In this document: positions 1,223-4,511 of the stretch, piece by piece
How positions within the stretch are numbered: the first letter of the stretch is position 1
Layout: every line of letters starts with the position of its first letter
The notes under the pieces: generated by a model
Told to the model about the DNA's origin: nothing
What the model saw: the letters and a program-made list of their open reading frames with translations, nothing else
The model's database searches: none
Program-made: the position numbers and the translations under genes
Origin: a virus
Taxonomy: Duplodnaviria; Heunggongvirae; Uroviricota; Caudoviricetes
Length of the DNA: 13,297 bases
Strand: one strand, 5' to 3'
IMG/VR virus record: IMGVR_UViG_2541047827_000004

Positions 1223-1438
1223 ATGTACCAGATGGAAAAAATCACAACAGGTGTGTCATACACCACGTCAGCGGTGGGAACGGGCTACTGGTTCCTGCAG
1301 TTGCTGGACAGGGTTTCCCCGTCTCAGTGGGCGGCAATAGGCGTGCTGGGGAGTCTGCTGTTTGGGCTGCTGACATATCTGACTAACCTGTATTTCAAAA
1401 TCAAAGAGGACCGGCGTAAGGCGGCGCGGGGAGAGTAA
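1223..1438 (+). CDS. S: Class II holin (pinholin, phage 21 S21 / DLP12 EssD-like) with dual-start motif
   Basis: Translation [71 protein letters not shown] closely matches the remembered S21 pinholin. Two in-frame Met codons (1223 and 1232) give the antiholin/holin dual start. GGAG lies about 10 nt upstream. The long ORF 1118..1438 is an N-terminal over-extension. Confidence 0.9.
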
Positions 1439-1439
1439 A

Positions 1440-2333
1440 GTGATGAATAAAAAATATGAACTGGTTGTTAAGGGGATAAATAATTACGGGGATAAGGTTA
1501 CTGTTACTGTGAAGTCGGAAGGTGACGGGCAAGCGTCGCTGTTGTTGCCAGATGTGGCGATTAGTCTTGACCGTACTGAAGGTGCCACGCTGGAGTTTTA
1601 CGAAGCTGAGGCGAAAAAGCAGGCGAAGCAGTTTTTCATGGATGTTGCTGCCGGGTTATGTGAAGGGGATGAGCAGTCGCCGGAAAAGCGCCCCGTAATT
1701 TTAGAGGCGCAGGATGTGTTGATAACCTACAAAGGAAAGCTACCGGGAAGAATTACTTGTTCTCTGAAGATGCCGCCGTCAACACTGCGGTCAGAAAAAG
1801 ATGATGTTGAATCACGTATTGAAAAACTGGAGAGCTACGTCGTTGAGCTGAATAAGAAATGGTCGATATTGGTGCCTTCTGGCGATGAAAAGCAGTTTGC
1901 TGCGTTTGACGATTATTGTCGGAAAGTGATGAGCAGAAATCTCGCAGAGTGTTTCAGTATTCATAATGATAATTTCAGTGACCCGGAATGGGAGTGTAAC
2001 CGGCCATCCTTTGTTGTATCCGGTGATGCTGGGAAAATAACCATCTCAGAAAATGGGAAAGTAACACCTCCATCGCACCAGCACAGTGAGGAGCTCATTG
2101 AATTTGCCATTGATTACCTGAAGAACAATAAAAAGCAGGGGCTGATGAAGCGCGTTGGCCGTTGCATGGGATATCTTCAGGTAGCCGCTGAGATTGAAGC
2201 GCTGGCCAGTGGTGCTGATAAGGATGCAATTGTGCGGGAGGCTCTTCTTCGTGATTTTAATACTCCACCCTTTAAAAAAGGGCCGGCTTACTGGCTTCAT
2301 CCGGGGCTGACTTATCTTAAAGTGCGTATTTAG
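1440..2333 (+). CDS. Hypothetical soluble protein (296-297 aa) inserted between holin and endolysin; function unknown
   Basis: Long intact ORF. The likely start is ATG 1443 (GTG at 1440 also in frame), with GGGGAGAG 7 nt upstream, 4 nt after the holin stop. No predicted TM segment or signal peptide and no motif I recognise; six Cys residues. Confidence 0.75.
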   Translation: MMNKKYELVVKGINNYGDKVTVTVKSEGDGQASLLLPDVAISLDRTEGATLEFYEAEAKKQAKQFFMDVAAGLCEGDEQSPEKRPVILEAQDVLITYKGKLPGRITCSLKMPPSTLRSEKDDVESRIEKLESYVVELNKKWSILVPSGDEKQFAAFDDYCRKVMSRNLAECFSIHNDNFSDPEWECNRPSFVVSGDAGKITISENGKVTPPSHQHSEELIEFAIDYLKNNKKQGLMKRVGRCMGYLQVAAEIEALASGADKDAIVREALLRDFNTPPFKKGPAYWLHPGLTYLKVRI

Positions 2334-2369
2334 TGGGCCAGGGACAGCGGCTGAATATTTAATATATCC

Positions 2370-2903
2370 ATGAACACCAAAATCAAATACGGCCTGTCGG
2401 CTGCCGTTCTGGCGCTGATTGCCGCTGGTGCGCCTGCGCCTGACATTCTCGACCAGTTTCTGGATGAAAAGGAAGGTAACCACACCACGGCATACCGTGA
2501 TGGTGCAGGTATCTGGACCATCTGCCGTGGTGCCATCATGGTGGATGGCAAACCTGTCGTTCCGGGCATGAAGTTGTCGAAGGAAAAATGCGACCGGGTT
2601 AACGCCATTGAGCGTGATAAAGCGCTGGCGTGGGTGGAGAAAAACATCAGAGTGCCGCTGACCGAACCCCAGAAAGCGGGGATCGCGTCATTCTGTCCGT
2701 ACAACATTGGTCCCGGTAAGTGTTTCCCGTCGACGTTTTATAAACGAATTAATGCAGGTGATCGCAGGGGAGCGTGTGAGGCGATTCGCTGGTGGATTAA
2801 GGACGGTGGCAGAGACTGCCGTATTCGTTCAAACAACTGCTACGGTCAGGTATCCCGTCGTGACCAGGAGAGCGCGCTGGCGTGCTGGGGTATCGACAGA
2901 TAA
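2370..2903 (+). CDS. R: SAR endolysin (T4-lysozyme-like muramidase, phage 21 R21 / DLP12 RrrD-like)
   Basis: N-terminal weakly hydrophobic Ala/Gly-rich segment (GLSAAVLALIAAGAPAP) typical of a signal-anchor-release domain. Canonical lysozyme catalytic triad spacing E-x8-D-x5-T in EGNHTTAYRDGAGIWT. Close match to remembered RrrD. Confidence 0.9.
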   Translation: MNTKIKYGLSAAVLALIAAGAPAPDILDQFLDEKEGNHTTAYRDGAGIWTICRGAIMVDGKPVVPGMKLSKEKCDRVNAIERDKALAWVEKNIRVPLTEPQKAGIASFCPYNIGPGKCFPSTFYKRINAGDRRGACEAIRWWIKDGGRDCRIRSNNCYGQVSRRDQESALACWGIDR

Positions 2904-3059: not shown

Positions 3060-3242
3060 ATGGCGAAGTGTAAACGAATTCTGTTGAGGTTGACTATGAA
3101 AAATGGCCTTGAACTGAAAGCGCCTGTAACTGATGACATCAGCAGAGCACTGGCTTTTGCCATTAAGTGGGTGGCGGTCGGTGTTGCTGTGTCCCCGATG
3201 CTGTATGGGCTGGCAAAACTGGTCATTGCGTTGAAATCGTGA
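3060..3242 (+). CDS. Small hypothetical protein (60 aa) with a C-terminal hydrophobic segment
   Basis: ATG at 3060 preceded by AGGGAGA. Translation [11 protein letters not shown]...[29 protein letters not shown] has a basic N-terminus and a hydrophobic C-terminus. Lies between endolysin and Rz. Confidence 0.4.
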
Positions 3243-3256
3243 AGGGAGGATTAAGC

Positions 3257-3388
3257 ATGTCAGACAAACTCATAACGCTGGCGAAGATCCTCTGTGTAAT
3301 TGTCGGCATTTCATTTTCACTAATGCTGGTTGCTCTTTTTCTTTCCATGGCCTGGATGATGTTGTCTTCGTCGGGGTTGCTGGGGTGA
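3257..3388 (+). CDS. Small hydrophobic single-TM protein (43 aa), stop overlapping the Rz start
   Basis: ATG at 3257 with GGGAGG 6 nt upstream. Translation [43 protein letters not shown]. Its TGA (3386-3388) overlaps the Rz GTG (3385-3387) as GTGA. Confidence 0.4.
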
Positions 3389-4184: not shown

Positions 4185-4511
4185 ATGAAAAGACGCCTTT
4201 TACTACTTTTTCTGTTATCTGTCCTGGCAGTGGGATGCTCGCAGCAAAAAGCTGATGAGCCCCGGCAATTAGTGACGGTGTATCCACGATATCCGGAATA
4301 TGCTGCAGCAAATTATATCAAGGGGCTGGTTGAGGTTAAGTTCGATATTGGTGCTGATGGGACTGTGACACGGATCGTTTTTCTCCGCTCAGAGCCTCAT
4401 AATTTGTTTCGTGATGAAGTGGTGAAGGCCATGGCGAAATGGCGATTTGAAAAGAATCGCCCCTGTCAGGGAGTGAAGAGACAATTTATCTTTACGCCGT
4501 CACGTCCTTGA
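4185..4511 (+). CDS. Small lipoprotein with a TonB C-terminal-like domain (109 aa)
   Basis: ATG 4185 with AGGAA upstream. Signal peptide plus lipobox (LAVGC). The mature part, VYPRYPEYAAANYIKGLVEVKFDIGADGTVTRIVFLRSEPHNLFRDEVVKAMAKWRF, aligns motif-for-motif with the E. coli TonB C-terminal domain ([53 protein letters not shown]). Confidence 0.75.
   Translation: MKRRLLLLFLLSVLAVGCSQQKADEPRQLVTVYPRYPEYAAANYIKGLVEVKFDIGADGTVTRIVFLRSEPHNLFRDEVVKAMAKWRFEKNRPCQGVKRQFIFTPSRP

Follow-up and report, generated by a model that had tools for sequence, protein, structure and literature searches.

The only functional study that we found for the YdfR (DUF1327) family of lambdoid-prophage proteins concerns YdfR of the cryptic Qin prophage of Escherichia coli K-12 (P76160; RNA Biol 2026, PMC13232886). 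That protein was recovered from a two-hybrid screen with RNase G as bait, its residues 1–72 suffice for a two-hybrid signal with Rne(1–597), full-length Rne and Rng, Rne(1–598) co-purifies with Strep-YdfR, and its overproduction is non-toxic (PMC13232886). The gene lies in the order essQ-ydfR-rrrQ, between genes for an S21-type holin and a Qin-type lysozyme. We describe here a gene in the same slot of a 13,297-nucleotide (nt) stretch of virus DNA, IMG/VR record IMGVR_UViG_2541047827_000004, the whole of which we refer to as the window. The gene, an intact open reading frame (ORF) at positions 1440–2333 of the + strand, had been picked out in an earlier note, made from the sequence alone, as an unknown gene embedded between holin and endolysin. 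We now regard it as near certain that this ORF is a full-length member of the YdfR family. Its product shares the RNase E-sufficient domain (K-12 residues 1–72) at 47% identity, although binding is reported for the K-12 protein only.

The two loci are alike in the holin junction with its embedded Shine-Dalgarno (SD) sequence, and the two proteins have homologous N-terminal domains, but their overall designs differ. K-12 YdfR has 103 residues and consists of the N-terminal domain followed by an unrelated tail of 30 residues, whereas the window protein has 296 residues and includes a linker, a helical hairpin, and a C-terminal domain of 110 residues. The junctions with the lysozyme genes also differ, in that the stop codon of ydfR and the start codon of rrrQ overlap in the sequence ATGA, whereas the window ORF stops 36 nt short of its lysozyme gene.

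Membership of the family is indicated by matches to Pfam DUF1327 (PF07041; 133.7 bits against a gathering cutoff of 25, E 2.8e-39) over residues 1–100 (2–101 when numbered from GTG 1440), and to PHROG 1085 (E 1e-188), an entry annotated "unknown function", with GTG-numbered residues 2–297 aligned onto profile positions 1–296 of 296. BLASTP against K-12 YdfR gives 47% identity over residues 1–74 (E 6e-21). RefSeq names the homologous genes "YdfR family protein" at hundreds of near-identical loci, and the 296-residue proteins in PHROG 1085 and RefSeq (e.g. NZ_OZ001728.1 and NZ_CP053251.2), which are 97–99% identical over their full length, are essentially the window protein. This long form makes up the largest cluster, with 962 member sequences. 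Among the 5426 complete E. coli genomes surveyed, 496 contain the ORF over at least 80% of its length, the best match is at least 99% identical in 372 records, and some related sequence is found in 3148 genomes. The family is frequent in Shiga toxin (Stx)-converting and other inducible lambdoid phages, where it is always annotated as "hypothetical protein"; a scan of species-representative genomes gave matches in Escherichia and Shigella only, and the contigs that carry divergent relatives are metagenomic or belong to Salmonella-type prophages. The window protein is already catalogued in Pfam, PHROGs and RefSeq, and its gene is an ordinary accessory gene rather than a new kind of system. The description "unknown gene" is therefore only half apt: these resources make it a recognisable YdfR/DUF1327 member, but one that has no assigned biochemical function.

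In RefSeq the long ORF, although intact, is often labelled a truncated pseudogene and is thus hidden from surveys that rely on proteins. At two of the loci that we compared (L006:12344–13234 and L015:2501–3391), RefSeq/PGAP annotates only the first 112 codons, as an "incomplete, missing C-terminus" pseudogene, and yet both copies read through intact at 296 codons. We rejected the pseudogene label on the copy in the best-matching genome because its translation is an uninterrupted 296-residue ORF, and the truncation at both loci is probably an artefact of naming by the short form.

The window ORF has 297 codons when counted from GTG 1440, and this codon is immediately followed by ATG 1443, from which 296 residues are encoded. 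We consider ATG 1443 the most likely true start, because the Pfam and PHROG alignments both begin at residue 2 of the GTG-numbered protein and the RefSeq start of the homologous coding sequences is the equivalent codon. The holin stop codon TAA (1436–1438) is separated from ATG 1443 by 4 nt, and within the last holin codons is GGGGAGAG, with a predicted anti-SD pairing energy of -8.5 kcal/mol. At the other end, the stop codon TAG (2331–2333) and the lysozyme ATG (2370) are exactly 36 nt apart. The product is a soluble, cytoplasmic protein, acidic (isoelectric point 5.8) and with a mass of about 33 kDa, and has no transmembrane (TM) segment by Kyte-Doolittle hydropathy, the 19-residue maximum being 0.75 as compared with 1.70 in the holin and 1.74 in the lysozyme; a regular-expression scan of the protein found no Walker A GxxxxGK[ST], HEPN Rx4-6H or CxxC motif. 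The GC content and the GC content at third codon positions are 46.5% and 46.8%, compared with 54.2% and 68.1% in the holin gene and 54.9% and 60.7% in the lysozyme gene. Coordinates, flanking-gene profiles and these computed values bear out what the earlier note had said of an intact ORF between holin and endolysin, of its own ribosome-binding site, of the 36 nt before the endolysin start, of the lack of TM segments and of Walker A or HEPN-like motifs, and of a composition more AT-rich than that of the flanking lysis genes. Its account of the start contains a small inconsistency, in that a distance of 4 nt from the holin stop suits ATG 1443, whereas a first position of 1440 and a length of 297 residues suit the GTG.

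An AlphaFold2 model built with an alignment that included divergent relatives has a mean predicted local distance difference test score (pLDDT) of 63.8, which corresponds to moderate confidence. The N-terminal DUF1327 domain is modelled as three beta-strands and one long helix with a hypervariable loop at about residues 24–38, and is followed by a linker in which a PEKRPVILEAQDVLITYKGKLPGRIT module is present or absent among aligned relatives, and by a helical hairpin region that is a site of insertion and deletion in the alignments. The C-terminal domain has no family name and is modelled as three short strands and several helices, with pLDDT values of 76–93 over approximately residues 190–272 and of 57–64 in the last 26 residues; the motifs HxH, GRCMGxLQxAAEIE, NPPFK and W..PG..YLK.R are near-invariant within it. 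A profile of the C-terminal half matched only 39 proteins among 1.84 billion cluster representatives, and several of these are full-length relatives, about 30% identical, with the same plan of N-terminal domain, coiled-coil and C-terminal domain. Because these relatives keep the plan and hhalign ties their N-terminal domains to DUF1327 (87% probability, E 3.7e-6), the two-domain architecture is evidently old, and the short K-12 form a truncated derivative of it. The N- and C-terminal domains have a similar strand-strand-strand-helix order in the model, but an internal duplication was rejected (hhalign probability 0.6%), and the impression of a HicB-like fold was supported by no search.

The profile and fold searches proposed in the earlier note were run, and gave no match to a characterised family, DUF1327 being itself uncharacterised. 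Pfam, NCBIfam, PADLOC and PHROGs searched with the whole protein, the C-terminal domain and 13 relatives returned only DUF1327 and PHROGs of "unknown function", apart from a PADLOC match to PbeC (E 0.018) that lies over the coiled-coil, with none for the C-terminal domain or the relatives. Searches of the PDB by single sequence and by profile gave LSm3 (E 1.4) and oligopeptidase A (E 0.066) as best matches, which we treated as noise, and Foldseek against the PDB gave best E values of 0.27 with a first, poor model (pLDDT 51) and 0.49 with the better one. For the C-terminal domain there was no Pfam, PDB or fold match (the fold search being against the PDB), and the window protein showed no sequence or fold similarity to the solved RNase E regulators RraA, RraB, RapZ and Dip. 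Comparative papers on the lysis regions of Stx phages make no mention of a gene between S and R. Since there is neither a catalytic motif nor an enzyme family by sequence or fold, we infer that the protein acts by binding and not by catalysis.

The holin-lysozyme junction varies greatly between prophages. It is empty in DLP12, where the holin stop overlaps the lysozyme start, and in 933W, where the two genes are 4 nt apart, and across prophages the slot ranges in length from -1 to 1316 nt, with lengths of 316 (K-12 Qin), 603, 868, 931 (the window), 1028 and 1316 nt. The contents include the long fused form, forms of 325–333 residues with extra inserts, forms of 183, 211 and 305 residues with unrelated C-termini, frameshifted or truncated copies (L016 and L018), and a C-module alone with no DUF1327 gene (L017). 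The proposal that the N- and C-modules always travel together was rejected, as L017 has the C-module alone and K-12 the N-terminal domain alone. Stx-type prophages have the same holin and lysozyme types, and in the same slot carry a 213-residue C-module gene, 87.6% identical in DNA to the window C-terminal domain over 354 nt, followed by a separate DUF1327 gene of 75 residues; this split arrangement differs from that of the window in its reversed module order, in its highly divergent DUF1327 copy, and in the antisense ORF of 95 residues that comes next. In split or truncated cassettes, antisense ORFs of 91–95 residues, with no Pfam match, lie between the DUF1327 gene and the lysozyme gene at L001–L004:4902–5189 (- strand) and L018:2964–3239 (- strand). 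The unnamed C-terminal domain thus behaves as an independent module, whether fused, split, permuted or alone. By these comparisons the holin-lysozyme junction is a hypervariable insertion site, at which the YdfR gene is evidently an optional cassette.

Ten different contexts were retrieved for the exact window lysozyme. In nine of them a DUF1327 gene separates it from the holin, and the tenth contains the same 296-residue ORF with no Pfam hit on record; because the slot gene is kept in all ten although the downstream packaging modules differ, holin, cassette and lysozyme move as a block. This association is among the observations that favour a lysis-timing regulator, a cytoplasmic protein that would bind the cytoplasmic tail of the pinholin or the nascent endolysin, with its signal-anchor-release (SAR)-like N-terminus, and so delay or sharpen triggering, in functional analogy to cytoplasmic antiholin helpers such as T4 RIII. 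The location between holin and endolysin and translation from a holin-embedded SD sequence are likewise in keeping with such a role, as is a genetic screen, cited in PMC13232886, that ties K-12 ydfR to envelope integrity, although the envelope phenotype could be a polar effect on rrrQ, the start of which overlaps the ydfR stop. However, 933W and DLP12 have an S21-type holin and lysozyme without the gene, which is thus unneeded for lysis, and the holin and lysozyme are near-invariant (dN, the nonsynonymous divergence, is 0–0.03), in contrast to the ORF, which is variable and exchanges modules even where the holin stays the same. The absence of a TM segment, and of any match of the YdfR protein to a lysis family in Pfam or PHROGs at E <= 0.1, also count against it.

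The positions of more distant relatives bear on the same question. E. coli members of the family sit directly after an S21-type holin, and the distant relatives are late-region genes outside the lysis cassette proper: some are between Q (with a HicAB pair) and a holin of the different family PF16080 in Gifsy-2/Fels-1-like prophages, another is two genes upstream of an S21-type holin, and another follows a DUF4406 gene on a short contig without a visible holin. The HicA/HicB toxin-antitoxin pair, between Q and the YdfR-like gene of the Salmonella-type prophages, is at L012–L014:4127–4781 (- strand). That relatives are found apart from the holin, or with another holin family, does not favour a regulator of lysis timing, and on balance we think that role unlikely. 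The YdfR gene is, as judged from these arrangements, outside the core lysis machinery and dispensable.

Patterns of substitution, as Nei-Gojobori estimates of the ratio of nonsynonymous to synonymous divergence (dN/dS), differ between the two ends of the protein. The C-terminal 118 codons have dN/dS values of 0.17–0.25 against homologues (dS 0.18–0.44), and the N-terminal domain a value of 0.61 against the 97% identical copy (L015), compared with 0–0.09 for the flanking holin and lysozyme genes in the same genome pairs. All eight nucleotide differences from the 99.1% identical copy (L006) are in codons with a changed amino acid, and six of them fall in two short patches at ORF nt 230–236 and 540–542, a pattern that points to patchwise recombination or diversifying selection and not to neutral drift. 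Given the C-terminal values, the ORF is a genuine coding gene, constrained most clearly in its C-terminal domain, and on these estimates its evolution, by patchwise exchange, is much faster than that of the core lysis genes.

Rapid change of this kind, together with the shuffling, splitting and permutation of modules, a base composition that suggests separate acquisition, and a 5'-proximal place on the late transcript, could reflect a counter-defence factor, made at the very start of the late transcript so that host abortive-infection systems are neutralised before their triggers, the structural proteins, build up. However, an accessory gene under weak constraint would be equally expected to evolve fast and to be mosaic, the protein resembles no characterised protein and the one PADLOC match is that over the coiled-coil, and the near confinement of the family to Escherichia and Shigella, with a few Salmonella-type relatives, is uninformative as to a target. 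We consider a counter-defence role rather improbable.

Between window positions 500 and 4600 the + strand contains no promoter-like site, and a strong terminator-like hairpin (1156–1184, + strand; 12 pairs followed by a T-run) precedes the holin start by about 40 nt and is presumably read through by antiterminated late transcription. Because of these two features, we infer that the ORF is made together with the lysis proteins from the late transcript; its Q-dependence is suggested by synteny, the Q gene being outside of the window, and the distant relatives, too, follow Q and either precede the lysis genes or lie among them. In agreement with this, K-12 ydfR has almost no reads in growing cells (PMC13232886). 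These features make it very improbable that the gene is a moron for lysogenic conversion or defence, from which the lysogen would draw protection or some other benefit. Several morons do lie nearby, among them an IraM-like gene and a gene for a TonB_C lipoprotein, and the ORF is more AT-rich than its neighbours, but it lacks a promoter-like site and stands tightly between late genes, the K-12 homologue is nearly silent during growth, and PADLOC gave no meaningful match.

Comparison of the junctions suggests how the cassette is fitted into the lysis region. In 933W, cggggagagTAAgctgATG runs straight into R, and in the window the near-identical cggggagagTAAagtgATG runs into the YdfR ORF. The window lysozyme gene is instead preceded by an A/T-rich leader (...ttaatatatccATG) without an SD sequence, and its pairing energy of +0.4 kcal/mol is the weakest of 15 window starts tested; the leader '...aatatcc ATG' recurs in other YdfR-bearing cassettes. 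From the junction sequences and the duplex energies (-8.5 against +0.4 kcal/mol), the cassette is seen to have captured the holin-embedded SD sequence that serves the endolysin directly in 933W, the endolysin start evidently being left without one. Translation of the ORF would then probably act in cis by bringing ribosomes to the SD-less endolysin start. If endolysin translation depends partly on upstream ribosomes, ORF deletions are likely to be polar, and deletion studies, including the published K-12 knockout screens, need a control for polar effects on the endolysin.

Such an arrangement might even be all that the gene provides, as a decaying or selfish filler with no trans-acting function, or at most a translated spacer that sets the level of endolysin translation in cis. 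The endolysin start without an SD sequence would give upstream translation some importance, copies that are truncated, frameshifted or reduced to fragments are common (L016, L018 and the short clusters), and the slot is empty in fully functional phages. However, the purifying selection on the C-terminal domain, the retention of the two-domain plan by relatives of about 30% identity, which belong to other prophage lineages and occupy other genomic positions, and the abundance of the intact form, as the largest cluster, in the 496 complete genomes, and in the L006 and L015 copies, are not what is expected of filler, and we find this explanation quite improbable.

The explanation that we prefer is that the ORF encodes a late, soluble, modular binding protein of the YdfR family, and it involves several conditional steps. 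The N-terminal domain would bind host RNase E at its catalytic N-terminal half, or RNA, or both, RNase E being the most likely target by analogy with K-12 YdfR; the helical region would mediate oligomerisation; the C-terminal domain would supply a second binding specificity; and the protein would thereby tune RNA decay during late development, with the gene feeding ribosomes to the endolysin start in cis. Support for these steps decreases in the order of binding, RNase E/RNA docking, oligomerisation, second specificity of the C-terminal domain, and cis feeding. As a joint package of RNase E/RNA docking, oligomerisation, a second specificity and cis feeding, we hold this explanation tentatively, at somewhat short of an even chance, and the RNase E step considered separately has in our view a chance that is well below even. 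Among the three roles suggested in the earlier note (lysis-timing regulator, anti-defence factor, or another late-acting accessory function), the last fits best.

Several observations weigh against this explanation. The RNase E link comes from one paper, and from a protein that is only 47% identical to the window protein in the relevant domain. Large amounts of DNase-resistant nucleic acid co-purify with Strep-YdfR, and the authors consider a contaminant retaining RNA to be possible; few transcripts are altered by YdfR overproduction (PMC13232886). The fast evolution of the N-terminal domain (dN/dS about 0.6) is unexpected for a protein that binds a highly conserved host enzyme. The C-terminal domain occurs without a DUF1327 gene in some prophages (L017) and is thus able to act independently of the N-terminal domain, the structural model is only of moderate confidence, and a gap of 36 nt is long for reinitiation, which is relevant to coupling in cis.

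A bolder version of the RNase E proposal, which we consider improbable, is that the long form is a two-headed late host-takeover factor, in which the DUF1327 head sits on the catalytic half of RNase E and the C-terminal domain recruits a second partner, such that RNA decay is reprogrammed at the onset of late transcription. If this were so, late-mRNA stability, toxin yield and lysis timing could all be influenced, since in many Stx-converting phages the family is encoded on the late transcript, with stx and the lysis genes nearby. In any event, the gene is very common among lambdoid prophages, Stx-converting ones included, and for it RNase E binding by the K-12 prototype offers one experimental lead.

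Features of the YdfR locus in the window, with the evidence for each
Feature	Position	Strand	Evidence
S21-type class II (pin)holin, 71 residues, upstream neighbour	1223..1438	+	PF04971, E 7.2e-33; PHROG holin
GGGGAGAG, predicted SD sequence of the YdfR ORF, embedded in the holin 3' end	1428..1435	+	Anti-SD duplex; junction comparison
YdfR-family ORF, 296 residues (297 from GTG 1440)	1443..2333	+	Pfam; PHROG; RefSeq start
N-terminal DUF1327 domain, residues 1–73	1443..1661	+	Pfam PF07041; AlphaFold2 pLDDT 61–87 (residues 5–73)
Linker, residues 74–120, predicted disordered	1662..1802	+	AlphaFold2 pLDDT 21–36
Helical hairpin/coiled-coil, residues 121–172	1803..1958	+	AlphaFold2 helices 122–146 and 149–171, pLDDT 54–66
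Conserved C-terminal domain without family name, residues 186–296	1998..2330	+	AlphaFold2; alignments; dN/dS
A/T-rich spacer of 36 nt before the lysozyme start, without an SD sequence	2334..2369	+	Anti-SD duplex, +0.4 kcal/mol
Qin-type (rrrQ-like) phage lysozyme, 177 residues, downstream neighbour	2370..2903	+	PF00959, E 7e-24

The genes around the cassette have features of their own. The holin gene has a dual-start motif (ATG 1223 and ATG 1232), the lysozyme has a hydrophobic SAR-like N-terminus (Kyte-Doolittle maximum of 1.74 at residue 9), and Rz is further downstream. Two ORFs of 60 and 43 residues with hydrophobic segments (3060–3242 and 3257–3388, + strand), the RefSeq relatives of which are called "hypothetical protein", lie between the lysozyme gene and Rz, a second variable cassette slot that in other prophages holds an Ant antirepressor or a DNA methyltransferase gene. 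Between Rz and the small terminase gene, at the position of lambda bor, is a lipoprotein-like ORF of 108 residues (4185–4511, + strand) with a lipobox-like ...LAVGC and a TonB C-terminal domain (PF03544, E 7e-13), and many related prophages have it as well. A moron of 111 residues (131–466, - strand), upstream of the lysis genes, is in a very AT-rich stretch of 31–35% GC; the ORF itself has no Pfam match at E <= 0.1, and its homologue is named "anti-adapter protein IraM" in RefSeq (L006) and has a PmrD Pfam hit in L024. A 67-residue DUF1737 ORF (712–915, + strand; E 4e-17) seems to be what is left of the N-terminus of the NanS-p-type SASA esterase of about 650 residues that is found upstream of the holin gene in the Stx-type prophages L001–L004, and the DUF1378 and DUF826 genes that normally follow this esterase gene are missing from the window.

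Other phages also carry genes in or beside their lysis cassettes that are unneeded for lysis itself, and T4 RI and RIII, P2 LysA and LysB, and P1 LydB are in this respect like the window protein. The window ORF differs from them in having no TM segment or lysis-family match, and some of its relatives lie away from any holin gene. If the K-12 result transfers, the mode of action would resemble that of Dip of phage phiKZ (PMC4980113), in that a small phage protein docks on RNase E and so changes RNA decay during infection. Dip showed no sequence or fold similarity to the window protein, and its binding site is the C-terminal scaffold of RNase E, in contrast to YdfR, for which binding to the N-terminal half is reported. 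T4 Srd and T7 gp0.7 are also phage proteins that target RNase E. The RNase E-targeting phage proteins come from virulent phages and act early; the YdfR gene, by contrast, is late and prophage-borne.

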